64,000 nucleotides of DNA from Spirochaetia bacterium. GTDB taxonomy: Bacteria; Spirochaetota; Spirochaetia; SZUA-6; Bin103. Made by a program: the position numbers and the translations under genes. This document shows positions 1 through 19,467 of the stretch, piece by piece (within the stretch, counting starts at the first letter, position 1; every line of letters starts with the position of its first letter). The DNA is taken from assembly GCA_965203905.1 (NCBI GenBank), contig CBDBDQ010000005.1, positions 4,480,001-4,544,000 of the forward strand, in the 5' to 3' direction. Below the pieces are notes generated by a model, which had not been told where the DNA came from, did no database searches, and worked only from the letters and a program-made list of their open reading frames with translations.

Positions 1-15
1 GGGTCAATCTCTCCA

Positions 16-3000
16 GCTTCAATGAGGCCGCCGGAATTCACCGGCGGAAACGCGCGCTGGCAGGAGGGCAACTGAAACATGGGCTTATACGCTTCAATGA
101 GGCCGCCGGAATTCACCGGCGGAAACATCCTCGGCGACGGCCGTGCTGTGGCGGCGGTTGACCCCGCTTCAATGAGGCCGCCGGAATTCACCGGCGGAAA
201 CTTCGGCGGTCATCCCCTCGGCCAGCGTCCGGCCGAAGCGCTTCAATGAGGCCGCCGGAATTCACCGGCGGAAACGCCGACAAGAAGGCCGCCGCCGAGG
301 CCAAAGCCGCCGCCGAGCTTCAATGAGGCCGCCGGAATTCACCGGCGGAAACGCGCGCTGGCAGGAGGGCAACTGAAACATGGGCTTATACGCTTCAATG
401 AGGCCGCCGGAATTCACCGGCGGAAACAGTCGAGCACGTCAACCTGCAGGACGAGAGTCCGGCAGCTTCAATGAGGCCGCCGGAATTCACCAGCGGAAAC
501 CATGGTAGTGATCCGGTTCACGGGTTACGTATTCGCGCTTCAATGAGGCCGCCGGAATTCACCGGCGGAAACCCCGAGATGGCGGAGAAGACGGCGCTGC
601 ACCGGCTGATGCTTCAATGAGGCCGCCGGAATTCACCGGCGGAAACTTCCGGTTTGAATCATGGTTCCAGCCAACCCCGCTTCAATGAGGCCGCCGGAAT
701 TCACCGGCGGAAACTCGTGTCAATAAGCCGAATGTTAAGAATGCTTAACGTGCTTCAATGAGGCCGCCGGAATTCACCGGCGGAAACTCCCCAGGGGATG
801 TCCGGTACCGCGAGATGGTGCTGCACGCTTCAATGAGGCCGCCGGAATTCACCGGCGGAAACTCCCCAGGGGATGTCCGGTACCGCGAGATGGTGCTGCA
901 CGCTTCAATGAGGCCGCCGGAATTCACCGGCGGAAACTCGCCGCTGATGTTGCCGTAGTCGTCTGTGTCGGTGCTGCTTCAATGAGGCCGCCGGAATTCA
1001 CCGGCGGAAACGAGGAACGGCGCCGGGTCCGGCCACTCGGTCAGCTCATCGCTTCAATGAGGCCGCCGGAATTCACCGGCGGAAACGCGATGGCCGCGCA
1101 AGCGGATGCAGACACCAACACCACGCTTCAATGAGGCCGCCGGAATTCACCGGCGGAAACAACGCCATCTCCTGCAATCCCATCGTCATGATCTCGGTGG
1201 CTTCAATGAGGCCGCCGGAATTCACCGGCGGAAACGCGGCTCATGCTGCCTCCCGGAGCACGGAGCGCGTCTCGCTTCAATGAGGCCGCCGGAATTCACC
1301 GGCGGAAACATTCGCAGCTAACAATATCATAGTCTGATTGAGCAAGACGCTTCAATGAGGCCGCCGGAATTCACCGGCGGAAACTCCAGGATCAGGAACC
1401 GCGCCCCGTAGTTGGTGGATGCGCTTCAATGAGGCCGCCGGAATTCACCGGCGGAAACACGCACCGGCCGGCGCGCTCTGGCACGGCCGCGTGATTGCTT
1501 CAATGAGGCCGCCGGAATTCACCGGCGGAAACTGCTCCTCCATGTAGTCCAGCAGGTCCAGCCCATCGCCGCTTCAATGAGGCCGCCGGAATTCACCGGC
1601 GGAAACATTCGCAGCTAACAATATCATAGTCTGATTGAGCAAGACGCTTCAATGAGGCCGCCGGAATTCACCGGCGGAAACTCCAGGATCAGGAACCGCG
1701 CCCCGTAGTTGGTGGATGCGCTTCAATGAGGCCGCCGGAATTCACCGGCGGAAACGTGGCGAAGCCGTCGGACTGTAGCGGGCTGATGCCGTCGCTTCAA
1801 TGAGGCCGCCGGAATTCACCGGCGGAAACGCCAGCGGCACATAATGAGTACCATGTTTGACAAGCTTCAATGAGGCCGCCGGAATTCACCGGCGGAAACC
1901 TGCCGAGGGTGTCGACGTGCTGTGGGTGGAGCAAGCCGCTTCAATGAGGCCGCCGGAATTCACCGGCGGAAACTCCCCAGGGGATGTCCGGTACCGCGAG
2001 ATGGTGCTGCACGCTTCAATGAGGCCGCCGGAATTCACCGGCGGAAACCGCAGCGTACTTCTGGTCCAGGGTTTGCTCCATATCGATGCTTCAATGAGGC
2101 CGCCGGAATTCACCGGCGGAAACGAGTATCTGGTCGGGCTCGGCCAGCCGCTCATCGAGCAGCTTCAATGAGGCCGCCGGAATTCACCGGCGGAAACCTG
2201 CTCGGAAACGCCTACTGGCCATTCACCATCAAGAAGCTTCAATGAGGCCGCCGGAATTCACCGGCGGAAACGCTGCCGCTGTCCATGTCCGCCGGGTCCA
2301 GGTCGCCCAGGCTTCAATGAGGCCGCCGGAATTCACCGGCGGAAACGTGCTCGGGGGAGCCCACGAAATCACCGCCGAACTCCATGGCGCTTCAATGAGG
2401 CCGCCGGAATTCACCGGCGGAAACGTGCTCGGGGGAGCCCACGAAATCACCGCCGAACTCCATGGCGCTTCAATGAGGCCGCCGGAATTCACCGGCGGAA
2501 ACTTGTCACGTCCTCGTCGTCCCAATCCTCCACCACCACGCTTCAATGAGGCCGCCGGAATTCACCGGCGGAAACCCGGTGACAGAGTGGCTGATACCCG
2601 TCCCATTATACACAGGCTTCAATGAGGCCGCCGGAATTCACCGGCGGAAACAGGCGGGCGGGGCCCCGTGGCACGAGTCGCCAGACGGGCTTCAATGAGG
2701 CCGCCGGAATTCACCGGCGGAAACCGGCGGCATGAGGGAGAACTGTGGCATTCACTGACTTGGGGCTTCAATGAGGCCGCCGGAATTCACCGGCGGAAAC
2801 TCGATACGGCAATCCTGGTCTCGCCACTTGTCGATTCGCTTCAATGAGGCCGCCGGAATTCACCGGCGGAAACCCAATACCACGCCGAGCGCTTCGGGTG
2901 CCAGCGCATCGCGCTTCAATGAGGCCGCCGGAATTCACCGGCGGAAACGCCAGATCCTCCAGCGCGCGAGCCGACGGCGCCGCCAGACGCTTCAATGAGG

Positions 3001-5338
3001 CCGCCGGAATTCACCGGCGGAAACATCCGAACCGATCCCCGGCCGCGAGGCCGAAATGGCCGAGCTTCAATGAGGCCGCCGGAATTCACCGGCGGAAACT
3101 GACGGGAACGGCGGCGGCGCGTCATCGGCCACGATGCTTCAATGAGGCCGCCGGAATTCACCGGCGGAAACTCGGGCGGCCCGGGCGCCGGCGCATCGGT
3201 CAGGTTGTCCTCGCTTCAATGAGGCCGCCGGAATTCACCGGCGGAAACTAGCTATATGCGATTAGTAGGCTATACCCCGTCATTTCGCTTCAATGAGGCC
3301 GCCGGAATTCACCGGCGGAAACAAGCCCGTGATCTCGCCGCCGTCCGGCAGTACGACAATGCTTCAATGAGGCCGCCGGAATTCACCGGCGGAAACGCCC
3401 GCCTTGCTCCGGCGGGTATTGAACGGGTGGAAGTGGCTTCAATGAGGCCGCCGGAATTCACCGGCGGAAACCTCGCAGCGCCACGGGCTATACTCGCGGA
3501 GAATCGCGTGCTTCAATGAGGCCGCCGGAATTCACCGGCGGAAACGCGGTTCGTACGTGTCGCCCGCGACCGCGCCCGGCCGCGCGCTTCAATGAGGCCG
3601 CCGGAATTCACCGGCGGAAACCGCCCGGATCATCGGCGACATCGTGGAGGAATGGATCACGCTTCAATGAGGCCGCCGGAATTCACCGGCGGAAACGGCC
3701 GCCGAGGACGTGTCCGAGGCCGGGCTGTACTTCTTGCTTCAATGAGGCCGCCGGAATTCACCGGCGGAAACCACGCCCAGGAGCCGCAGAGGAATCCTCC
3801 GATGGCCTCGCTTCAATGAGGCCGCCGGAATTCACCGGCGGAAACGTGATCCGCAGTTGCACCTGCCCGGTCAACGGGCTGTCCACCTCATCGCTTCAAT
3901 GAGGCCGCCGGAATTCACCGGCGGAAACTCCCGCCCGTAAGCCCAATCGGGCACCGGCGCATGCCGTGCTTCAATGAGGCCGCCGGAATTCACCGGCGGA
4001 AACGGCCGCCGAGGACGTGTCCGAGGCCGGGCTGTACTTCTTGCTTCAATGAGGCCGCCGGAATTCACCGGCGGAAACCACGCCCAGGAGCCGCAGAGGA
4101 ATCCTCCGATGGCCTCGCTTCAATGAGGCCGCCGGAATTCACCGGCGGAAACGTCAGGAAGGCGATGGCGTGCTCGTGGTCGGAGCGGGCGCTTCAATGA
4201 GGCCGCCGGAATTCACCGGCGGAAACCTCGCATTAGCAACCTACAAAGCGAAAAAGGCACCTTCCGCTTCAATGAGGCCGCCGGAATTCACCGGCGGAAA
4301 CGTTGAACAGTAGAAGGATCGAGCCGCACCAGATCGCGCTTCAATGAGGCCGCCGGAATTCACCGGCGGAAACGTGTCGATACCGCCGTATGGTGCTGTC
4401 GGTCTCTTTGGTGCTTCAATGAGGCCGCCGGAATTCACCGGCGGAAACTACGGCATAGTGAATGACGTTGTAGTCTACATGGCAACGCTTCAATGAGGCC
4501 GCCGGAATTCACCGGCGGAAACCCCTGGTCTCCGGCGCCGTGGATGTCGCCCTGCGCGCCGCTTCAATGAGGCCGCCGGAATTCACCGGCGGAAACTCCG
4601 CCTAAGAATGGCGCTATGATGCTGTTTTTCAACGGGCTTCAATGAGGCCGCCGGAATTCACCGGCGGAAACACAGCAGGGTCAAGCGGTTTTCGCAAAGT
4701 TTTTCAAGGCTTCAATGAGGCCGCCGGAATTCACCGGCGGAAACGAGTTAAACTCGCAGCCCTTGGTGACCAAGCCCCATCTTGCTTCAATGAGGCCGCC
4801 GGAATTCACCGGCGGAAACGAGGATTGAGAGTTAGAGAGTTCGTCAAGTCAAAGTGGCGCTTCAATGAGGCCGCCGGAATTCACCGGCGGAAACATCGCC
4901 GTCATCGGGACGCAGTTCGCCGATTCGCTGGCGCTTCAATGAGGCCGCCGGAATTCACCGGCGGAAACCCGGCACAACGACGTCTACGTTCCCCTCGGCC
5001 TCGTGGCTTCAATGAGGCCGCCGGAATTCACCGGCGGAAACCTCGTCCACCTGGTCGTCACTGAGCTTCCGGCGCGTGGTGCTTCAATGAGGCCGCCGGA
5101 ATTCACCGGCGGAAACCCGCAACCAGGCGTTGATGCCGCGCATCGAGTAGACGAGGCTTCAATGAGGCCGCCGGAATTCACCGGCGGAAACATCGTTGTT
5201 GGCGGAATCCAGCTCGGGCATGGAACCGCTTCAATGAGGCCGCCGGAATTCACCGGCGGAAACGCACCGCAGCAGTCGTCGCAGACGCCGCGAAAGTTCA
5301 ACGCTTCAATGAGGCCGCCGGAATTCACCGGCGGAAAC
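16..5338 (-). CRISPR. Type I-G CRISPR array: 72 repeats of 36 bp (transcribed as GTTTCCGCCGGTGAATTCCGGCGGCCTCATTGAAGC) and 71 complete spacers of about 32-47 nt; truncated by the window start
   Basis: Repeat GCTTCAATGAGGCCGCCGGAATTCACCGGCGGAAAC counted by hand from 16-51 to 5303-5338, with one variant (G>A at 492). It has an internal GC hairpin and an ATTGAAGC 3' end, and lies next to cas2. Confidence 0.99.
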
Positions 5339-5544
5339 GCACCCGCTCCAACTTGCGACGAGTGGGAGAATTACTCGCAGGGTTGCGAGTGGTGCGTGAA
5401 AGGTGCGATCGAGCAGAGATCACAGGCAGCATCAGGTACCGATTCTACACCGTAAGATTATGTATGTCAAAGACCTGGCGACTTGCGAGCCCTCCCTGAG
5501 GTACGCGCGGCACCGGAGCGCTCGGTCGGCAGCGGCGGAGCCGG
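5339..5544 (-). promoter_or_regulatory. CRISPR leader
   Basis: Non-coding stretch between cas2 and the first repeat. Contains a promoter, an inverted repeat ACTCGCA-GGGT-TGCGAGT (5374-5391) and recurring TTGCGA motifs. Confidence 0.9.
5442..5470 (-). promoter_or_regulatory. Sigma70-type promoter of the CRISPR array
   Basis: Minus strand reads TTGACA-N17-TAGAAT, pointing into the array. Confidence 0.85.
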
Positions 5545-5835
5545 CTACACAATGAGCGGTTCGCGCTGCATCGGGTGGAAGGTCTTCCCCAGGCTCACGA
5601 CACGCGGTTCGACGTTGTCGGCGACGCCCAGATCGACCAGTACCACGTGATCCTCGTTATGATCGATTGTTTTGTCGAGGCGTGCAACCAGTTCGGCCTG
5701 GCGGCGCTTGTTCATGCGGCACTGGAAGACCGAGAGCTGTACCCAGGCTCCGTATCCGTTCATCAGCTTGTAGACCTTGCGCCACCGCTTCGGGTCGGCA
5801 ATGTCGTAGGCCACGATGTACAGGTGCTCGTCCAT
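5545..5835 (-). CDS. cas2: CRISPR-associated endonuclease Cas2
   Basis: 96 aa; YIVAYDIAD..RW and WVQLSVFQC motifs. Confidence 0.97.
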   Translation of the reverse strand: MDEHLYIVAYDIADPKRWRKVYKLMNGYGAWVQLSVFQCRMNKRRQAELVARLDKTIDHNEDHVVLVDLGVADNVEPRVVSLGKTFHPMQREPLIV

Positions 5836-5838
5836 GGT

Positions 5839-7644
5839 TCAGCGCGTCGTGAAGTTGGGGTAGGCCGGAATCTCCCCGAGCAGGAAGCGCCCCAGGAGCC
5901 GGGCCTGCATCTCCATCAGGCGGCGGTAGCTGACCCGATAGCCGAACAGCGGATGGACGATTTCGTGGCTCAGGCGACGCTCGAAGGCGGCGATGAACCG
6001 GCGCCGACCCTCTGGAGTAAGGGCAACGCTGCCGGCGGCTGATCTGAAGTCGATCGGCCGTATCTCGCCGTTGTTGATGAGTTGCAGGACGACCGAGTCG
6101 GCGATCAAGGGCCGGAACGGCTCCATCAGGTCGAGAGCAAGGGCGGGACGGCCGTAGCGGGGTTGGTGATACAGGCCGCGGAAGGCATCGAAGCCGACGG
6201 CGGTCAGGGTCACGGTCCAGGCGCGGGTCAACAGCGAGTAGGCAAACGAGAGCAACGCGTTGACCGGATCGGTCGGCGGCCGCCGATTGCGCTTCTCGAA
6301 GTCGAACGCCAACGTCCGCGCCGGCTCGCTCTCGCTGAACATTGCCGGGAACGCTCGAAAGTAGCGCGCCGCGGCCGTTCCTTCCACGCCGAGCAGCACG
6401 GCCAGCGACCGCACCCGTGCCACCCGCCGGCTGTCCTCCTTGAGCTCGATCAGCACATCGCGATTATCTTCCGACCGCTTCCAGTTCCTCCTGAGCAGGG
6501 TGCGGCAATTCGCGATCTTGGCGCTCACCAGCCCCTTGGCGAAGCGCAGACAGATGGTCGGGTCGAAGCTGGCCCGATACTGAGCCGTTCTGAGCTCCAC
6601 GTTCTTGTGGCCATTCCCGATGGTGTGGCCATAGAACCATCCGCCGTGACTGTGCCAGGTCACCGGAATACCACGCCACATCAGTTCGTGCAGGCACGGT
6701 GAGGTGACGTAGATGCTGCCCATGAGCACCACCTGCGAGGTTTCCGCAAGGCGGGCGGTGGCTACCTTCTCGTCGTCGACGGTAACAACCAGCGTCTCAC
6801 CCGACTTGGCGACCTTGGCGCCGCGGGCCTGCACGTAGAGCGGCAGCGCGTCCGTGGCGGGCACGGCGATCGGACGGGGCGCGGCGCCGGGGCGGGAAAG
6901 CAACGCGAGATGATTTACCTCGTCGGGAAGACAGATGCTCACCAGGGAACAGCGCGGACACTTGGGGCTGTCTTCGAGCGGCGGCGGGATGGTGCCGCCG
7001 TGTGCCACGTTCCGCAAGCCCTCGACGGCCCGTTCCGTGGCGGCGATCAACTCGTCGTCGAACACGACCCGTACGCGCTCGCGGCCGGCCACGAAGTAGA
7101 GCACCCCTTCGTCGCACCGATAGCCGTGCTCGCGCAGGATCAGTCCCTGTACGCAGAGTTGCACTCGCTCGGGGTCGTAGGCACCGCGTTTCACGTGCGG
7201 ACGCTTGCCACGTTTGTAGTCGATCGGAACGACGCGCCCATGCTCGGACTCGATCAGGTCCATGCGTGCTATCAACCCCAGTCGCTCGGATGACAGCGTG
7301 ACCGACCGGGCATGCAGCTTCTCCGCGACCTCCTGCGGCGCCGGCATCGCGCCGCCGTCCCGATTGACGCGCCGGTGCGCATGCCGTCCCTCTACGGTGT
7401 CGGCGGAGTCAGCCCACTCGCCCTGAACCCACTCCAGGTAGGCCAGGCGCGGACAGTACTGATACTCGTTCACCATCCGGGCCGGCACCAGCGGACCTTC
7501 GACCGGTGCTCCGGCAGGAGGGAACACGAACTCGCCCTGCTGCGGTGCGGTTCTACGGCTCGCTTCCTCGGTGTCACCGGTCTGAGGAACCAGTGCCGGC
7601 GGCGGGAAGTTCGCCGCCGCGTTCTGCCTACCATCTGTCTTCAC
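5839..7644 (-). CDS. cas4-cas1: Cas4-Cas1 fusion (start uncertain)
   Basis: N-terminal Cas4 (YCPR, IDYKRG, QLCVQG, CPRCSLVSIC); C-terminal Cas1 (GVEGTAAARYF, RRPPTDPVNALLSFAY, LALDLMEPFRP). Confidence 0.96.
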   Translation of the reverse strand: MKTDGRQNAAANFPPPALVPQTGDTEEASRRTAPQQGEFVFPPAGAPVEGPLVPARMVNEYQYCPRLAYLEWVQGEWADSADTVEGRHAHRRVNRDGGAMPAPQEVAEKLHARSVTLSSERLGLIARMDLIESEHGRVVPIDYKRGKRPHVKRGAYDPERVQLCVQGLILREHGYRCDEGVLYFVAGRERVRVVFDDELIAATERAVEGLRNVAHGGTIPPPLEDSPKCPRCSLVSICLPDEVNHLALLSRPGAAPRPIAVPATDALPLYVQARGAKVAKSGETLVVTVDDEKVATARLAETSQVVLMGSIYVTSPCLHELMWRGIPVTWHSHGGWFYGHTIGNGHKNVELRTAQYRASFDPTICLRFAKGLVSAKIANCRTLLRRNWKRSEDNRDVLIELKEDSRRVARVRSLAVLLGVEGTAAARYFRAFPAMFSESEPARTLAFDFEKRNRRPPTDPVNALLSFAYSLLTRAWTVTLTAVGFDAFRGLYHQPRYGRPALALDLMEPFRPLIADSVVLQLINNGEIRPIDFRSAAGSVALTPEGRRRFIAAFERRLSHEIVHPLFGYRVSYRRLMEMQARLLGRFLLGEIPAYPNFTTR

Positions 7645-7949: not shown

Positions 7950-8831
7950 CTAGCGGCTCTTCCTGAACAGCCCGAACGCGAAGTTGGGTGGCGGCTCCGG
8001 AATGTCGTTGCGGTCCTGCAGGTAGCGCTGCGTCTGCTCCGTCGGCGAGACATGATCCATCGCGGTGAAGCCGGACCTCTGCATCTCGGCGTCGATCTCC
8101 TCGGGGCTGTACTCCGACAGCATCGGCTCGCCGCGGCGTTCCACGAATCGGTCCATCTTCTCGACCAGCGCCAGCCCGGCAGCGGGCACCAGGCTTCGGG
8201 GGTACCGGTAGTCGAGCACTACCTGGCTTCCGGGTGCGGCGACGGCGTCGATCTGGTCGATGGTGTCGCTGACGGCCTCCCTGGTCAGGTAGCACGTCAC
8301 CCCCAGCCACGCAAAGAAGGCCGGTGCCTCGGGGTCGAAGCCGGCTCCGATCAATGCAGCGTCAAGCCGGTCCGTCTCGAAGTCCACCGGCACCAACGCG
8401 AGATTCGAGGGCAGCGGGCCAATGCGCGCGAGCTGGTGGCGCTTCATCTCCTGCGACGCCGGATGGTCGACTTCGTAGATGCGCAGCCGATCCGCCAGAC
8501 TCGGGTGGCGCACCGCGAACGTGTCGAGCCCGGCTCCGAGGATCACGTACTGCTGCACGCCGGATGAAATCGCTTCCTGCAGCCGGTCCTCGGCGTACCG
8601 GATGCGCAGGATGATCACGGTGTGGGTGGGCTTGAGCGTTCGCAGCAGGACATCGACCACGAGGCGGTTCAGCACCCAGTTGTTGGCGACCAGCCGCCAG
8701 AACGGTGTCACCATGGCGCCTGCGTATTGGTCGGAGAAGATCGGATTCGGATTCCACCTGAGGTGGCTGGCGCGTACGGCGGCCACCAGTATCGCGGTGG
8801 TGCTGGCCTTGCGAGGGCGGGTGTCGGACAT
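7950..8831 (-). CDS. SAM-dependent methyltransferase, leucine carboxyl methyltransferase-like family
   Basis: QYVILGAGLDT, YEVDHP, VPVDFE and WLGVTCYL motifs. Confidence 0.9.
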   Translation of the reverse strand: MSDTRPRKASTTAILVAAVRASHLRWNPNPIFSDQYAGAMVTPFWRLVANNWVLNRLVVDVLLRTLKPTHTVIILRIRYAEDRLQEAISSGVQQYVILGAGLDTFAVRHPSLADRLRIYEVDHPASQEMKRHQLARIGPLPSNLALVPVDFETDRLDAALIGAGFDPEAPAFFAWLGVTCYLTREAVSDTIDQIDAVAAPGSQVVLDYRYPRSLVPAAGLALVEKMDRFVERRGEPMLSEYSPEEIDAEMQRSGFTAMDHVSPTEQTQRYLQDRNDIPEPPPNFAFGLFRKSR

Positions 8832-8964
8832 GACGCGTCAGTATGTACGCGTCATCCTCGACCTTGTCGAGCACCCGTGCCGCCAACGCCCTTGGCGCCT
8901 TCGGCCCCGACGCAGGTAGGTTGCCCCTGTGTTGCTATCGCGCCGACCTGCAACTCCTCTATCG

Positions 8965-10215
8965 TCAGCCGTCACGCTGGGAGCCGCAGAACAGGCGCCG
9001 CACCGTCTGGTTGGGAATAACCATGCGGGGAATGTATTCACGCTCTGGTTGGATGCTCAGCAGGCCGAAGTAGTGCAGCAGCGACGGGAGGTTCTCCGGC
9101 TGGGCCAGTTCCTCCAGCAGAAAGCCGTCACGGACCGGGCTTTCCACGGCGCTTTCGCAGGCCAGTTGGCGCAGCATGTCGAAGGTCTCGTTGAGCTTCC
9201 GGTTGCCGGTCAGCAGGTGGCGCAGCTTGTCGTAGTGGACGCGTACACTGCCATCGATCAGGTCGTCCGGCGGTCCACCGTTCGAGATCGATTCCATCAG
9301 GTAGCGGAGCACCGATTTCGTGTGGTAGAGGTCGTTCCGGGCGCGCTCGCCGAATCGGTAGCCGCCGTACCACTCACCCATGACGGCCATCGCCTCGTTC
9401 ACGTCCTGGTCGAACACGCCGAGCTGGCGGTAGCGCTCCAGCAGGTCGCATACCTCCGCTTCCGTGAAACCCAGCATCTCGTTGAACTCCGGACGCAGGC
9501 TGATGTCCATGCCGATGTTGAAGCCGCCGGTCACGCCGGCCATGCTGATCGGCGTCACCCCGGCGACAAAAATGCGCTCGATGCCGCCGTGTCCGGTGCC
9601 GGCCTTGAGCGTGGCGAAGAAGCTGCGGTAGAAGCCGGCAAAGTCCGGGGCCGGCCACCGGCTCGCACCGGTGCCGCGATCGGCCAGAACGGAATCGGCG
9701 AGGTAGTCGTAGCCGTCGATCAGTACGTACAGCGGAACGCCGTGCGTTGACCCGCGCAGGAACAACTCGTTCAGCTTCGATTCGATGCTGGACGCCGCCA
9801 GGATGCGCTGCCTCACCGCGTCGGGGAACAGGTCACGGTTGCACTCCAACGCGTGGCGGAGGCTTCGGGAGCAATGCTGATCGAAGGGTTCCCGCGAGGT
9901 CTCCGCGGCGTCGCCAAGCGCGGAGAAGTCGAAGTGCAGGATGACGTAGCGGTGGCGCTCCGGCGTCGGTCGCCGTGCGATGTCGGTGCCGGCGAACAAT
10001 GCCTCGAACCGGCCGGCGGCGTTGCGATCGTAGTAGTTCCGCAGCAGCGAAACCCAGCACGACTTCCCGAACCCGCGGGGGCGCATCAGAAAGGCGTAGT
10101 GTACCTCTTCCAGCTCGTGCAGAAAGCGGGTCTTGTCGACGTAGAGCATCCGTTCGCGGCGCATCGCCTCGAAGTCGGTGCGGTCGTAAGGAATCTGGGG
10201 ATACGCGGTGCTCAT
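8965..10215 (-). CDS. AAA-ATPase-like protein (PF09820 type), probably truncated or degenerate
   Basis: YVDKT, RPRGFGKS Walker A, and LIDGYD in place of the usual LIDEYD. Ends after IPNQTV, before the usual C-terminal PD-(D/E)XK domain. GGAGG precedes ATG 10215. Confidence 0.8.
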   Translation of the reverse strand: MSTAYPQIPYDRTDFEAMRRERMLYVDKTRFLHELEEVHYAFLMRPRGFGKSCWVSLLRNYYDRNAAGRFEALFAGTDIARRPTPERHRYVILHFDFSALGDAAETSREPFDQHCSRSLRHALECNRDLFPDAVRQRILAASSIESKLNELFLRGSTHGVPLYVLIDGYDYLADSVLADRGTGASRWPAPDFAGFYRSFFATLKAGTGHGGIERIFVAGVTPISMAGVTGGFNIGMDISLRPEFNEMLGFTEAEVCDLLERYRQLGVFDQDVNEAMAVMGEWYGGYRFGERARNDLYHTKSVLRYLMESISNGGPPDDLIDGSVRVHYDKLRHLLTGNRKLNETFDMLRQLACESAVESPVRDGFLLEELAQPENLPSLLHYFGLLSIQPEREYIPRMVIPNQTVRRLFCGSQRDG

Positions 10216-10464
10216 CTCGACACCTCCGTCACCTCCGTGGTGAAAATCGGCGCAAATTGGCGCGGCCGACATCCGTTCCTTCCATCGGTTCGCGCTTCAT
10301 TCTGTTCTTCAGCCAGGCGGCGACCTCGCTCCGGCTGTTCAGGGCTTCCTCGATCTCGCGTTCAACCGGACTCAACGCCGCCAACCGCGTAGCGCGCTCC
10401 TCGGTGTGGGCGACCGAGCGATTCGAGAGCCATCTGCCGTTGCCGCTCAGGGACGAACACCGTC

Positions 10465-11076: not shown

Positions 11077-12813
11077 TCACGGGGCGCCGGTCCTTGGGGC
11101 GATCGAATCTGTGGCGGCGAACAACCCGAGGCCGAAGTGGCAGCCGTAGCCGAGGGCGACCGGGCCGGAGACCGACTCCGGGAAGTGCACGCGCAGCAGC
11201 GCGCCGTGCGGGTCGGAGGCGCGTTCGCGGCCGCGGGAGCGGAAGCGGTGATACTGGAGCGACCGGCGGCGGTTGCCGTGGACCTCCACGAAGGGGAGCA
11301 GGTCGACCTGAATGCGGCCGGTCAGCGATGGGCCCAGGATGCCTCGACGCTGGATGAGCCGGCGCACTTCGCGGGGGTAGCCGGTAGCCTCCGCCAGGGG
11401 GCCTTCGATCATTCGACCGGCTTCCAGCGTGCGGCGGGCAGTGCGTCCCTCGCCGGTTCGCTTCAGGTGAGCAGTCGGCAGAAAGGGGGTGACGCTGTCC
11501 CAAACCCGTGCATGCCGGAATAGAGCGGAGAATTGCGCGAACTCCTCACACGTGCCGAAGCCTTCCAGTGCCAGCCGCCACTCGCGGCGGCCGCCTTCTT
11601 CGGTAGCGCTGCCCGCCTGGGAGCCGCGTGCCGGTAGCCACAACCGCGTCAGCCGATCGAGGGCGGCCCGCACCCGGGTGTCGAATCCGCTAGCAGCGTA
11701 CACGCACACGTGGTCGATCAGACCGTCCCCGTCGGCGTCCTCCGGAAGCCAGAAGGCATGCGAATGGTGGGCGTCGCGCAACGGAGTGTTACCCTCGCCA
11801 CGGCCGGAGATCTCGGGCGGTGCCAGCGCTCGGGAGCGCCCGGTGCGCGGATCCGATTCCCAGCCGAACTGTGACAGAGCCGCGCGGCGCATCAGCTCGC
11901 CGATCCTTACCGCGTCTTCGATGCGCGGTTGCGGGCGTCCGGCAAGCAGATAACGGGCGACCGTGTAGCGGGAAGGGTCCGGTATCCGTGCACCGCGCGG
12001 CACCACGCGGCGCGGGTGGGGTGAGAGCGGCGTGCGCTCGTAGTGGATCTCGTGCGCCGCCGGAGGCCGGTTCCAGCCGTGTTTCTGGAAATCGGCGGTG
12101 TCCACGGCTACCGCGTCGATAAGGCGGTTCGGCAGCGTGCGGCCGAAGCGTCTCTGCCGCTTCCTGCCCAGCGCCAGCGAGGTAGGCGGTCGCTTGCCGG
12201 CTGCGTGCGCTGCCGCCCGCTCCTCAGCGTCCGCTTGTGCCAGGAGGCGCTCGCGCCGCGCCGCATAATCGCTGGCGGTGAGCGGTCCCGGTACCGAAAC
12301 TAACTCTCCGAAGCCGTTCGCAGTGCCCTCAACGGGCAGACAATTGGCCCCCGATCGATCCCACTCCGCCGTCGCGCTGCACTGCACCCAGCTCTCGGCG
12401 CGGCCAAGGTACCCGATGCCGTCGGCAAGATCGGTAACCAAGTCGAACAGCCGGGGTTCCAGCAGGAGGTCCGGCCACGCGACGACGATCGATGCGCCCT
12501 CCGGCAGGTGAGCGAAGGCATCGAACACCAGGGTCTTCCTGGCCGGCGCGGGCATGTAGTGCCGAGTGTGCGCGTGTACGGCGCCCTCGGGCAAGTGGTA
12601 AATCGGTGTCGCCTCCGCCAGCGCATCGATCAGGTTCGCGGCCTCTTCCTTCGACCAGTGCGCGCAGGATCCCTTGCGCCAGTAGGTAGCGATCAGCGCT
12701 CGCAGGATTCGCCACGGCTCCGGCGGCCACGCCACGTCGGCCTCGTTGACATGGCGGCCCCACGGGGTCGCGTGGTAGCGGTGCGCCGGAAAGCTGAACG
12801 AGAGCGCGAGCAT
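11077..12813 (-). CDS. csb2: Type I-G Csb2 (Cas5-Cas6 fusion)
   Basis: YHATPWGRHVNE..WPPEPWRILRAL, YLGRAESW, and C-terminal glycine-rich GPVALGYGCHFGLGLF. Confidence 0.95.
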   Translation of the reverse strand: MLALSFSFPAHRYHATPWGRHVNEADVAWPPEPWRILRALIATYWRKGSCAHWSKEEAANLIDALAEATPIYHLPEGAVHAHTRHYMPAPARKTLVFDAFAHLPEGASIVVAWPDLLLEPRLFDLVTDLADGIGYLGRAESWVQCSATAEWDRSGANCLPVEGTANGFGELVSVPGPLTASDYAARRERLLAQADAEERAAAHAAGKRPPTSLALGRKRQRRFGRTLPNRLIDAVAVDTADFQKHGWNRPPAAHEIHYERTPLSPHPRRVVPRGARIPDPSRYTVARYLLAGRPQPRIEDAVRIGELMRRAALSQFGWESDPRTGRSRALAPPEISGRGEGNTPLRDAHHSHAFWLPEDADGDGLIDHVCVYAASGFDTRVRAALDRLTRLWLPARGSQAGSATEEGGRREWRLALEGFGTCEEFAQFSALFRHARVWDSVTPFLPTAHLKRTGEGRTARRTLEAGRMIEGPLAEATGYPREVRRLIQRRGILGPSLTGRIQVDLLPFVEVHGNRRRSLQYHRFRSRGRERASDPHGALLRVHFPESVSGPVALGYGCHFGLGLFAATDSIAPRTGAP

Positions 12814-12825
12814 GTCGGCGAGCGA

Positions 12826-16079
<3,254 letters not shown>

Positions 16080-16090
<11 letters not shown>

Positions 16091-18536
16091 GCGTCACCTC
16101 CACTTCGGTAGCCGATGCCCGCCAGTCGGCGATGCGCAGGAGGGCTTCCAGCCACGCCAGTCGAAACGGTCCGTAGCGTTCCAGCAGACCGCGCGTACGT
16201 TCGGTCCAACTGGCCTCCGAACGGGCGTCCTCGCCCAGTTCCATCACTGACAGGCTCAGCTCACCCCCGGGCCACCGCTCGCCGGTTCCCAGTTCGACGT
16301 CCGGAAGCTGGTCGCCTTCCCACACGCCGCGCGCGAACCGCCGACCGTCGGGGCGGCCTTCAGCAGTGGTCCCCGGCTTCTCCGCGGGAAGCGCGCGCAG
16401 ATTCATGCGCACCTTGCCATGATGCGCGGCAATGAGGTACGCAACCAGGTCGGCGGCGCGCGACCACTCGGCATGGGCAAGCCATGCGAGGGCCGAGGCC
16501 AGCTCATGGCGGAAGTAGGGGCGACCCTTGCTTCGGTCATAGTGATGCGCTTTGGCAAGCACTGGCCCCGAGGCACTCGCGCCAAGTCGCTCTTGGAATG
16601 TGGCGTGGGCCTTCCCGACATCATGCCAGCGCGCCGCCTGGATTACCTCGCGTTTGCCAGTGACGGCCCCAAGAGTCTCGCAGAGCCGGTCGGCCTCCGA
16701 CACGACATGCTGGAGATGAGCGGTGAGAGGCACCACTGCCCGCTGCTGGCTCTCAGGATCCGCGTCCAGCGACTCAGCCACCCGCTGATCAGGATCCGGG
16801 GGATCGATCGGCATGACCGGGGCGGTCACGGTGGGGTCGAATCCGGTGCACGGTGAATAGCCTCCCGCGGTGACGTGCAGCATCAGCACGAGTCCGGGCC
16901 ACGGAGTGGCGTCAAGAGGCACCCAGGCCGTGCCGCGTTCGCCACCACCGCGCCGTCGTATCTGGGGATCGGTCTGATAGGCGCGCAACCGCTGTTTGGT
17001 GCGTACCGCTTTGAGCCAATCGCGCGCCTGTCCGATCGGCACTGCACACAGTTCCTCTCGCCGCGGCGGAGGCTCGTCGCGGGGACCTTCGGAACGGTCG
17101 AAGTCGCGCCAGAACACGCGGATGTCGGTGTCTTCCGCGTCGCGCACGTAGGGCGACACATCGACGTCGAAGCCGGTTAGATCTGGGTCGGTGTCATACA
17201 GATCGATCAGGTCCTTGCGGCGAATCACCCAGCGGTGCGCGCAATCCTCGGCAGCGGGAGGGGCCAGATTCGACGGTCTCGCGTCGTTCAAACTGGCGAT
17301 GCGCGAGCGTCCGATGGCCAGTTCGCGCGGCTCGTACGGGGCCGCCAGGGCGTCGTCAGCAGTGGTAAGGTCGATCCAGTGAATGGTCGCACCGCCGCTT
17401 TCGTTCAGTTCTCCGTACCGGTTCACCCGACCGAATCGCTGCACCATCGAGGAAGCCGGCGCCAACTCGGTGATGAGCGTAGCTGCGGACAGGTCGACTC
17501 CCGCTTCAATGGCTTGCGTGGTGACCACGATCAGGTCGCGCGCCGTGCGTGGCTGCGGCAGCTTCTCCATCTGCACGTGGCGGTCGCCGGGGCGAAACCG
17601 GGAGTGGATCAGGGCGAGGCGGTCGGGCGGCACACCCTGCTTGATGAGGGCCGCATGCACCCGTTGAGCACGGGCAACCGTGTTCAGGATTACCAGTGTC
17701 GTCCGCCCCGGTTGATGATGCGCGCGACCTGCTGCGGCCAACTCACGTACGTAAGCTGCGATGTCGGCCTTCCTGGCGCTCACCGGCCGGACCGGCGACG
17801 GCGCGATCCGTTTCGGCGCGTCGAGCAAGGTGCGGACGGCCGGAGACTGCTGGTCTCCTGGAAACTCGTCGGGAACGCGCCAGACGCGGGGATTGGCCGG
17901 TGCGTCCACCGTGTGCAGCCACCGAGGGTGCAGAGTGGCCGATACCCAGAGGCTGGCGGCGTCCGCCTCGGTCCCCAGTGTTCGCCGCAGCCCTTCGAGT
18001 TGCGTGGAGGTAGCCAGGCCAGAGCTCATGAGCTGGATCTCGTCGAACACCCACTGGACGTCGTTGTGAAGGAGAGCGAAATCGACCGGCCAGCGAAAGC
18101 GGCTCATGGCGTATCCGCGCATCAGTGCGCGGCTGATCAGCATGTCCTGGGTCCCGACCAGGACTGCCGGGCGCTCCGGCCACTCGTACCACCTTGGCTC
18201 GTCCTCCCCACCCATCAGGACGTGGACGTCGCGGTCGGCGTCGGGCAAACGTACCTGCCACTCCTGAACGGATGGAAGCCGTCGAAGCCACGCGGTCACG
18301 TTGCGCGCGGTCTGGTCGGCAAGCGTGCGCATCGGCAGGCAGTAAACCAGCCGGAGCGGAGCGGTTTCGGCTGAGATGACGCGCTTCCAGAGCCAAGCGA
18401 GCACTACCGCAGCGGTCTTGCCGAGGCCGGTAGGAGCTATGAGCGCATCCGGCCAGACGCGGTCGGCGAGCGCTTCCTGGTAAGCGAACGGCTTGGCTCC
18501 CCCTAACGCTGCGGAGAAGAAGTCGCGGTACGTCAT
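16080..18536 (-). CDS. cas3: Type I-G Cas3 (helicase with C-terminal HD nuclease)
   Basis: APTGLGKT, DEIQ, SAT and QRFGRVNR helicase motifs; C-terminal HDVGKAH, AHHG and IADWRAS. Confidence 0.96.
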
Positions 18537-18760
18537 GGGGGCGTCTTCGCTCCAGGAGGAAGACGAACCTTCGCCATCTCGCGCATCTCGCTACTCTCCC
18601 GATCGCCGCCCGCGCTTGCAGCATCTTGGTATAGAATCACGTGCACGGAAGACTCTTCCCTCCACTCCTCGATACCGCCGATGGCGCGAGCACCGACCAC
18701 TACTCGAAACGAACGCTGCCCCGTCGACGTACTCCTGGCGTTCAGCTGCGCTATTGTCAT
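18533..18760 (-). CDS. Putative 75-aa leader ORF coupled to cas3, function unknown
   Basis: ATG lies shortly after the cas promoter; its TGA overlaps the cas3 ATG (ATGA). An alternative in-frame GTG follows GAGGAGTGGAGG. No recognisable family. Confidence 0.4.
   Translation of the reverse strand: MTIAQLNARSTSTGQRSFRVVVGARAIGGIEEWREESSVHVILYQDAASAGGDRESSEMREMAKVRLPPGAKTPP
18542..18565 (-). promoter_or_regulatory. Hairpin enclosing the cas3 Shine-Dalgarno sequence
   Basis: Minus strand CGTCTTC-CTCCTGGAGC-GAAGACG; the GGAG is inside the structure, just before the cas3 ATG. Confidence 0.5.
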
Positions 18761-18782
18761 TTCTTAGCCTACGGCGTAATCT
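18754..18782 (+). promoter_or_regulatory. Oppositely oriented, overlapping promoter for the mini-array
   Basis: TTGTCA (18754-18759)-N17-TAATCT (18777-18782). Confidence 0.65.
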
Positions 18783-18784
18783 AA
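18767..18784 (-). promoter_or_regulatory. Target site (TTA PAM plus partial protospacer) of the mini-array spacer
   Basis: Minus strand TTA-GATTACGCCGTAGGC versus spacer GATTACGCCGTCGGC. Confidence 0.8.
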
Positions 18785-18806
18785 CTATATACTTGATCGC
18801 GGTCAA
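18778..18806 (-). promoter_or_regulatory. Promoter of the cas3-csx17-csb1-csb2 operon
   Basis: Minus strand TTGACC-N17-TAGATT in a locally AT-rich patch. Confidence 0.75.
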
Positions 18807-18816
18807 CAGCGAGTGT

Positions 18817-18921
18817 GCTACCGCCCAAGGCGGTCTCTTTGAAGCGATTACGCCGTCGGCGCAGTTCGCGTATGAGCCTCTCTATCCGGGCCTCAACCAT
18901 GAGACCCGGCCTCTTTGCCCT
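18817..18921 (+). ncRNA. CRISPR-like mini-array (pseudo-repeat, 36-nt spacer, pseudo-repeat); candidate CreR/CreA-type regulatory crRNA
   Basis: psiR1 18817-18845 GCTA-CCGCC-CAA-GGCGG-TCTC-TTTGAAGC; spacer 18846-18881; psiR2 18882-18921 CTAT-CCGGG-C-CTCA-ACCA-TGAG-A-CCCGG-CCTC-TTTGCCCT. Array repeat for comparison: GTTT-CCGCCGG-TGAATT-CCGGCGG-CCTC-ATTGAAGC. Confidence 0.82.
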
Positions 18922-19195
18922 CCGGGGGCGGTTTCGTCGTCGACCGGATGAGCGGTGTATGCCATGGTCAACGGTGGCGCATCAGCCGGCGACAGAACTA
19001 CGGCGCCGTTCCCGGCGAGCCGCCCCGACGCGCAGCGTTGTGGGAGACAAGGGGTCGGGTGGGTCGGGGGCAGAGCCGTAGCCTGATCCGAAAATGGTGG
19101 CCGCCGTGCACTGCTCCATTGCGCCGGTTTCATGGTCTTCCGTGTCACGGTGCGACCGTGCTGACTCAGCGGATTTCGGTCGCTATGCTGGAAGC

Positions 19196-19354
19196 GTGAT
19201 TCGCGTGGGAGTGATCGGGGCCGGCGCAGTCGCCCCGGTCAGTTGCCGCGACTTCGTCGCTTTGAACCGCGTGTTCGCCGCGCCGCGCGCGCCGGACGCG
19301 GTCTATCGCGCGGCAGCCGCCGGGCGGGAGGTGATCCTCGATGGATCGGACTGA
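19196..19354 (+). pseudogene. Remnant of a Gfo/Idh/MocA-type oxidoreductase with a large internal deletion
   Basis: An N-terminal MIRVGVIGAG Rossmann start is joined within 52 aa to a typical C-terminal DAVYRAAAAGREV. Confidence 0.5.
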
Positions 19355-19467
19355 CGGAAGTGATTGGACGAAGAACCGCGCTGCGTCGGGGCATCGCGCC
19401 ACTCCGCTCGATGTCTCGTGACCGGCGAGGGGCCATACTGAGCGATGGGGAGGCGGGCACCAGGCTG

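Follow-up and report, generated by a model that had tools for sequence, protein, structure and literature searches.

Subtype I-U, now called I-G, figures under its old name in the literature on self-regulating CRISPR-Cas systems. Autorepression by CreR has been shown for subtypes I-B, I-E and V-A (bioRxiv 10.1101/2023.03.10.532045), and the available part of the same preprint, which tests no I-G system, mentions creA-like elements found by hand in subtypes I-D, I-C, I-E, I-F and I-U (its Figure S7); in the I-E CreR that it describes, the first degenerate repeat (psiR1) keeps the handle and the second (psiR2) keeps the portion with the hairpin. Regulatory mini-arrays of class 1 systems were shown for subtype I-F1 and, in the available text of that study, are listed for I-A, I-B, I-D and I-E (bioRxiv 10.1101/2023.03.03.530964, PMC10120712). 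Here, we describe an element located upstream of cas3 in a 64,000-nucleotide (nt) stretch of a Spirochaetia genome (assembly GCA_965203905.1, contig CBDBDQ010000005.1, positions 4,480,001 to 4,544,000 of the forward strand; hereinafter, the window, with coordinates counted from its first letter). Comparative sequence analysis makes it probable that this element belongs to the regulatory mini-CRISPRs of the CreR type, here in a type I-G system.

The element consists of two repeat-like sequences around one spacer-like sequence, outside the CRISPR array, and begins 57 nt beyond the start of the first open reading frame (ORF) of the effector operon, a 75-codon ORF (hereinafter, ORF75). It lies in the 480-nt gap between this ORF and a plus-strand gene with a HAD_SAK_2 domain that begins at about 19243. 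The degenerate repeat psiR1 (18817-18845, plus strand; ACCGCC-CAA-GGCGGT / CTC / TTTGAAGC) contains a short hairpin (18820-18834), a linker and the 8-nt handle TTTGAAGC (18838-18845), which is identical in 7 of 8 positions to the handle of the 36-nt array repeat (GTTTCC..ATTGAAGC; in sense orientation, GTTTCCGCCGGTGAATTCCGGCGGCCTCATTGAAGC). The 36-nt spacer-like guide, psiS (18846-18881, plus strand), follows; its nucleotides 1-15 are complementary to the predicted cas promoter, and it co-varies with the target. The second repeat, psiR2 (18882-18921, plus strand; CTAT-CCGGG..CCCGG-CCTC-TTTGCCCT), has the hairpin CCGGG..CCCGG (18886-18909) and the linker CCTC (18910-18913) and has lost the handle. 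Re-reading of the sequence thus agrees with the layout of psiR1, psiS and psiR2 proposed by an earlier reading of the DNA alone (hereinafter, the sequence-only reading), including the 7/8 handle and its loss from psiR2. Under the cleavage rule of Csb2, the predicted cut in psiR2 falls after 18913, and the predicted mature CreR-like RNA (18838-18913, plus strand; 76 nt) would comprise the handle, psiS and a 3' hairpin. The hairpins of the two repeats fold. On both strands of the 58.6 kb outside the array, the motifs CTC[AT]TTGAAGC and CCGGCCTC[AT]TT each occur once, at 18835 and 18906, respectively; the two sites are on the same strand, and the distance from CTC to CTC is 76 nt, that is, one array period. 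A scan of 18400-19400 against Rfam identifies no family, the lone match being at chance level (E 0.95).

The target of the guide lies nearby on the minus strand (18767-18784), with TTA as the protospacer-adjacent motif (PAM; 18784-18782) and a protospacer at 18781-18767 that psiS matches in 14 of 15 positions, the mismatch being at nt 12. A scan for sigma70-like promoters across 18450-19150 yields a single match versus 0.2 expected, namely, TTGACC (-35, at 18806), a 17-nt spacer and TAGATT (-10, ending at 18778) on the minus strand. The -10 element of this predicted cas promoter (18778-18806) spans PAM nucleotides 2-3 and protospacer nucleotides 1-4. The sequence together with the promoter scan bears out the sequence-only reading with respect to the 15-nt match interrupted at nt 12, the TTA in front of it and the overlap with the -10 box. 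The claim that pairing largely ends after nt 15 holds as well: by hand count, merely 6 of the 21 positions of psiS beyond nt 15 match the flank of the target. In shuffles of 18537-19242, an inverted 15-mer with at most one mismatch appeared in 3 of 200, with neither the handle junction nor the PAM required.

Across the 8-Mb genome, the target is the sole site with an exact TTN and seed (nt 1-5 and 7-11). If one mismatch is allowed, there are 27 sites with TTN and the seed, 20 of which contain TTCGACTACGCCGT, a sequence with 21 genomic occurrences, all within a multi-copy gene family. The members of this family (..HLRLGFSSLFDYAVRELGYSEGAAWRRIKAMRL..; 21 sites in the source genome, e.g., C5:415185 and C5:4671083), which resembles mobile or HNH-type families, carry TTC followed by GACTACGCCGT, one seed mismatch away from the guide. 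These near-matches are probably coincidental because the seed mismatch is at nt 3. A search for viral mimics of the guide in a viral contig collection gave no matches.

Strong evidence comes from related loci. When 41 related genomes were searched at the DNA level, 11 relatives gave matches, in the coding part of cas3 alone, and 10 regions were fetched. The family set analyzed here comprises 10 loci, the window and 9 relatives with cas3g (65-79% identity over the longest tblastn segment); 8 of the 9 relatives also show csx17, csb1 and csb2, and in the remaining one, L014, the contig stops inside cas3. L022, which is not an I-G locus, was set aside, as were L011 and L012, with weak DNA matches. 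All 9 relatives have the same layout upstream of cas3: the target with its PAM, an AT-rich -10 stretch, GTCAAC (the TTGAC of the -35 element on the cas strand), psiR1, the guide and psiR2. In the family, psiR1 ends with [ATC]TTGAAGN, and psiR2 has the form TTCCGGG-loop-CCCGGCCTC.TT; CTC.TTGAAG and CCGGG/CCCGGCCTC.TT are invariant in all 10 loci of the alignment. The invariant blocks correspond to the linker with the handle, the PAM-distal part of the guide and target, and the psiR2 stem with CCTC. In 8 of the 10 loci, a cas promoter is predicted at or next to the target, either overlapping the PAM and protospacer (offset -4 or -1) or ending 5-6 nt before the protospacer.

The guide and its target evolve together. 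Of the 16 guide/target pairs, 7 change on both sides, and none of 500 shuffles attains the observed score; sliding the partner by 1-3 columns lowers the share of paired guide/target cells from 82% to 27-39%. In the psiR2 stem, 2 of 7 pairs co-vary. The best guide match was searched without a PAM condition, and one locus, L019, was registered by hand owing to a triplication of GAAGC. When an 8-nt handle sets the register, the PAM is TTN in all 10 loci (TTA in 7, TTT in 2 and TTG in 1). The pairing ends by nt 15-17 in every locus, extending over 15 nt in 3 loci, including the window, and over 17 nt in 7, and the PAM stays in register because this 2-nt difference is present in the guide and in the target alike. 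The match counts range from 11/17 in L014 to 15/17 in L013, with 14/15 in the window; positions 18-20 match in 2, 2 and 4 of the 10 loci, a count in which L019 is misregistered. At its other end, complementarity stops at the junction of the handle and the guide: in every locus, the last three nucleotides of the handle share at most one of three letters with the PAM. In L019 (114-308, minus strand), the GAAGC triplication lies at this junction and leaves the handle-like AGCGAAGC beside the guide, a natural variant. The locus L014 is represented by a 2691-nt contig with cas3 in three tblastn segments in different frames and has the worst-pairing guide of the set; these oddities reflect either assembly errors or a decaying locus.

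The degeneracy of both repeats would also fit an old array in decay, or two stray repeats, devoid of any present function. This is hardly credible given that the element is kept in all 9 relatives, in which intergenic DNA has otherwise diverged too far to be matched by BLASTN, the cas3 coding sequence being the only part that was matched. Furthermore, the changes are compensatory, and the invariant blocks are located exactly at the functional parts of the repeats.

The mismatches that remain within the paired zone are not scattered at random along the guide. In the 10 family loci, mismatches occupy 13 of the 20 cells at guide positions 6 and 12, compared to 22 of 144 cells elsewhere in the paired zone (Fisher test, 6.6e-6, a value that overstates the excess, the loci being kin and non-independent), and the mismatch rate by phase is 0.65 versus 0.07-0.23. 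This periodicity has a structural counterpart: as described in the available part of the I-G Cascade structure paper, pairing follows a 5+1 pattern in which Cas7 flips out every sixth base and leaves it unpaired. According to the same source, Csb2 cuts 4 nt 3' of the stem, yielding an 8-nt handle, and remains on the 3' hairpin, and the accessible text of a study of the I-U system of Geobacter reports that a TTN PAM licenses interference. The PAM assignment for the element rests on this I-U paper and on the conserved TTN because the array spacers show no full-length self-match in the genome. The 8-nt handle left by Csb2, the flipping of each sixth base and the TTN PAM, which the sequence-only reading had given as established, were all found in these papers. 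The three rules come from unrelated I-G systems and fit the element without adjustment.

The same pattern is detectable far outside the family. A profile of the Cas3g N-terminus was compared to genome contigs, and the best 80 of 431 stretches, from many phyla, were scanned; among these 80, the near relatives of the window carry titles of Spirochaetia metagenome-assembled genomes. In this blind scan, TGAA[AG]N had to precede a guide in which at least 11 of 13 scored positions matched a TTN-flanked site at most 400 nt away, with positions 6, 12 and 16-18 ignored. Within 800 nt upstream of cas3, such a configuration was found in 10 of the 80 loci (shuffles, 0.3 per 80), and in the whole upstream flank, in 15 of the 80 (shuffles, 0.6 per 80); the cas3 coding sequence gave 0 of 80 in both scans. 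Four of these 15 loci belong to the family of the window, and the other 11 bear the titles Binatia, Arenicellales (probably false), Bryobacterales, Dehalococcoidia, Planctomycetaceae, Polyangiaceae, Acidobacteriota (2), Pyrinomonadaceae, Caldilineaceae and Pirellulales. The unscored positions 6 and 12 are each mismatched in 14 of the 15 loci, and in L061 the guide mismatches are confined to nt 6, 12 and 18. Thus, the comparative check for co-varying guide/promoter pairs upstream of cas3 that had been proposed together with the sequence-only reading came out positive in 9 of 9 relatives and in 15 of 80 loci of the wider set.

The architecture, too, recurs in these lineages. A hairpin followed by CC[CT]C and ATTGAAGN, then 36-40 nt, then a second hairpin followed by CC[CT]C and ATTG is present in L033, L039, L043, L061, L072, L074, L091 and L099. 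A covariance model of the family element scores 117-138 bits in six family loci, 47 bits in L043, and 20-25 bits in L061, L033, L091 and L099. Three matches were rejected: the scan match in L035, an AT-rich sequence without hairpins, is probably a false positive; the covariance-model match in L055 is a true array; and the match in L083 is noise. A different orientation is seen in two Bryobacterales loci, L043 (2254-2464, plus strand) and L039 (2055-2245, plus strand), where the mini-array is co-directional with cas3 and located inside the cas3 leader, with the target on the opposite strand at the promoter; in such an arrangement, the guide would come from the very transcript that it represses.

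These observations bear on the question of whether the complementary arms need Cascade at all. They could form an inverted repeat that serves a protein regulator as a pair of operators or folds into a stem within a long plus-strand RNA starting upstream of the target, with the repeat-like flanks being relics. A conserved, co-varying pair of 15-17 bp is what any pairing-dependent structure would produce, the extended -10-like motifs upstream of the target could yield a transcript with both arms, and the PAM-distal GCCTACGGC is near-palindromic and far more conserved than the seed. Nevertheless, an inverted repeat predicts neither the TTN beside one arm in 10 of 10 loci nor complementarity that ends sharply at the junction of the repeat handle, nor mismatches at each sixth position, nor an invariant handle accompanied by a Csb2-type hairpin with CCTC. 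Besides, the mismatches are mostly not compatible with G-U pairing (3 of 157 cells of the guide/target helix are G-U), and unrelated lineages show the same pattern with other sequences. Taken together, this evidence makes a Cascade-independent inverted repeat very unlikely.

The identity of the repressed gene required closer inspection. The sequence-only reading placed the target in the cas promoter, which stands insofar as this is the predicted promoter of the operon; the first ORF behind it, however, is not cas3 but ORF75 (18533-18760, minus strand), the TGA stop codon of which overlaps the cas3 ATG (ATGA). Homologous ORFs occupy the same place in L017 (1751-1999, plus strand; 35% identity) and L018 (17922-18110, minus strand; 31% identity), so that an ORF of this type, with 63-83 codons and the consensus M.I.AE.I..S...GQRS.RVV.G..I..VEEW.E.SSVH.ILY, opens the I-G operon in 3 of the 10 family loci. 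The stop codon overlaps the cas3 start codon in the window and in L017, and the ORF ends about 30 nt upstream of cas3 in L018. A profile search of 1.84 billion proteins produced four matches, of which two are real small homologs, of 64 and 76 amino acids; the other two are long proteins in which 10 and 16 short stretches were matched, and these were taken as spurious. ORF75 belongs to no Pfam, NCBIfam or PADLOC family. The GC content of its codon positions is weakly gene-like, with a value of 0.64 at the third position (GC3) versus 0.76-0.82 in the cas genes, and the AlphaFold2 model is poor (predicted local distance difference test, pLDDT, 54). In the other 7 family loci, no homolog of ORF75 was found at this position. 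Unrelated ORFs precede cas3 in some of these, of 30 codons in L013 and L016, ending at the cas3 start, and of 103 codons in L015; the arrangement in L013 and L016 suggests translational coupling to cas3 in loci without an ORF75 homolog. By eye, the last six codons of the two 30-codon ORFs are similar, ATG GAT AAC CAC GCC CGG in L013 and ATG AAG AAC CAC GCG CGA in L016 (M-D/K-N-H-A-R).

Given this gene order, the guide could be the CreA half of a Cascade-repressed toxin module of the CreTA or CrePA type that mainly restrains a toxin encoded by ORF75, which would be released upon loss or inhibition of Cascade, with the regulation of the cas genes being secondary. The position of ORF75, rather than cas3, directly behind the targeted promoter, its homologs in the same place in two relatives and the further two in the protein library, and its lack of a known family are all compatible with such a module, and protein toxins under CreA control are described in the available text of a review. 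Yet, the 7 family loci without an ORF75 homolog keep the guide/target pair directly upstream of cas3, and three of these have unrelated short ORFs instead; translational coupling of ORF75 to cas3 would make separate expression impossible, and the low GC3 and the poor structural model are accompanied by no sign of toxicity. On balance, a toxin module appears quite improbable. Because a homolog is missing from this position in 7 of the 10 loci, with unrelated ORFs in its stead, we regard ORF75 as a passenger within the regulated unit and give a role as a safeguard protein a small chance.

Thus, the data are best compatible with autorepression of the CreR type, for which the following sequence of events can be proposed. 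A plus-strand transcript would carry psiR1, psiS and psiR2, and Csb2 would cut it four nucleotides 3' of each hairpin, and the product, about 76 nt long, would consist of an 8-nt 5' handle, the 36-nt guide and a 3' hairpin and be loaded into the I-G Cascade in the manner of a CRISPR RNA (crRNA). Cascade would read the TTA PAM, and guide nucleotides 1-15 would pair with the minus-strand promoter across the -10 element and the start site; with the target overlapping the cas promoter, bound Cascade would cover one or the other. RNA polymerase would then be blocked, such that transcription of ORF75-cas3-csx17-csb1-csb2 would drop. Because the pairing stops at nt 15, the R-loop would presumably be incomplete and the chromosome spared from cutting by Cas3. 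Repression would be lifted once abundant crRNAs titrate Cascade or anti-CRISPR proteins disable it. The core claim of the sequence-only reading, namely, repression of the operon by its own Cascade once this guide is loaded, gains support from the conservation, the co-variation, the PAM register and the mismatch pattern. The accompanying propositions, that only a single guide needs to be matured and that crRNA competition or anti-CRISPRs would bring about derepression, are transfers from other subtypes and had been overstated. The guide may also limit its own synthesis, as suggested by promoter candidates on the mini-array strand that overlap the target site in 4 of the 10 family loci. An extended version of this scheme would have an R-loop on two overlapping, face-to-face promoters silence both the entire effector operon, including Cas3, and the gene for the guide itself, making the circuit doubly self-limiting and, in the sub-lineage of the window, also gating a small conserved protein, possibly a safeguard (toxin or regulator) for the case that Cascade is disabled; we consider this extension doubtful.

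Several observations weigh against autorepression by a processed guide. Of five sequencing runs that contain the mini-array stretch, none is on record as RNA. No consensus plus-strand promoter for the mini-array was found in the window, the candidates in 4 of 10 loci mentioned above being the only ones in the family. In some relatives, the seed has mismatches at nt 1, 3, 5 or 8, and in L014 merely 11 of 17 positions are paired. In several loci, psiR1 forms a short or weak hairpin. Moreover, according to the available part of the literature on the I-G Cascade, stable association of the complex with linear DNA in vitro depended on Cas3. Finally, 5 of 10 loci have a strong, conserved extended -10-like motif of the TGGTAGAAT / TGGTATAAT type on the strand of the mini-array, in the interval from the cas3 start to the target (18629-18641, plus strand, in the window, with equivalents in L013, L014, L016 and L019). 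This motif may drive transcription of a long precursor or of an antisense RNA; should it be in use, both arms would be part of the precursor, which could fold back on itself.

The locus beside the element, on the minus strand, is a complete CRISPR-Cas locus of type I-G, as identified by NCBIfam and Pfam searches. The effector operon (11077-18536), in which all NCBIfam matches exceed the cut-offs, consists of cas3g (16080-18536; TIGR02621, 741 bits), csx17/cas8g (13769-16090; TIGR04113, 567 bits), csb1/cas7g (12826-13779; TIGR02570, 118 bits) and csb2, the Cas5-Cas6 fusion (11077-12813; TIGR02165, 161 bits). The adaptation genes, assigned with Pfam, are cas2 (5545-5835) and a cas4/1 fusion (5839-7644) that combines Cas4 and Cas1 within a single 601-aa protein; all these genes are on the minus strand, as are the leader (approximately 5339-5540) and the adjoining CRISPR array (1-5338), which continues past the start of the window. 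The minus strand of the window contains 71 exact copies of the repeat, and the genome contains 88 copies with at most four substitutions, all at one site. The spacers are 32-47 nt long, mostly 38-39 nt, and a comparison of 86 array spacers to the rest of the genome yielded no full-length match, only partial matches of 17-24 nt. Between csb2 and cas4/1, two non-cas genes are inserted (7950-10272, minus strand), encoding an LCM-type methyltransferase and a predicted AAA-ATPase (PF09820); in L013 and L020, a homolog of this ATPase is located upstream of cas3 instead.

Among the type I subtypes, I-G has been studied least, and it is under development for genome engineering. If the proposed role is correct, a natural guide that binds without cutting would define the extent of pairing that separates binding from Cas3 cleavage in a complex where Cas3 is a built-in subunit, and would explain how I-G expression is held low and then released under attack. 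The 10 co-varying guide/promoter pairs, together with about 10 independent lineages that have the mismatches at nt 6 and 12, provide ready test material. The concept as such, published in 2023, is unchanged by this finding, and the novelty suggested by the sequence-only reading was overstated in that CreR and the mini-arrays were both described in that year and the CreR preprint, in its available part, mentions I-U elements. In the available main text of the mini-array study, the terms I-G, type I-G, I-U, csx17 and Cas8u are missing, and neither I-G nor I-U is named in the accessible parts of a later preprint on viral mimics and of a 2025 review. We found no experimental study linking I-G with CreR, CreA, mini-arrays or autorepression; the supplements of the 2023 papers may list I-G/I-U elements, possibly of this very lineage. 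Thus, the kind of element is known, and membership of I-G was hinted at earlier; what is added here is an I-G family that is conserved and co-varies, together with its distribution over many phyla.

Among the described systems, tracr-L of type II-A, as far as its available description goes, resembles the present element in that an effector autorepresses its cas promoter via a natural guide with a short match. However, it belongs to class 2, employs a single Cas9 and a guide derived from the trans-activating crRNA, and involves no Cascade, Cas6-type processing or repeat pair. The CreA component of CreTA and CrePA is likewise a crRNA-like guide with which Cascade represses a promoter through partial pairing; the toxin gene behind the repressed promoter that defines those modules is not established here, and an ORF75 homolog is not there in 7 of the 10 family loci. 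The regulatory mini-arrays, according to the available text, are standalone repeat pairs in cas loci with a partial match of at least 10 bp to cas8, cas10d or cas6 promoters next to the right PAM, and their reported frequency of about 12-19% of loci (bioRxiv 10.1101/2023.03.03.530964) can be set against 15 of 80 I-G loci in our scan. The closest match is CreR: in its available description, two degenerate repeats likewise surround a spacer-like guide, with the 5' handle retained in psiR1 and the 3' part in psiR2, about 15 PAM-proximal positions match the effector cas promoter beside a cognate PAM, the location is upstream of the cas operon, and most loci have no obvious toxin. The I-G element differs from the described CreR in its subtype, with cas3 as the first effector gene and hence the nuclease-helicase under the same control, in the predicted processing by Csb2, a fusion of Cas5 and Cas6 with a cut 4 nt past the stem, and in the location of the target between two face-to-face promoter candidates.

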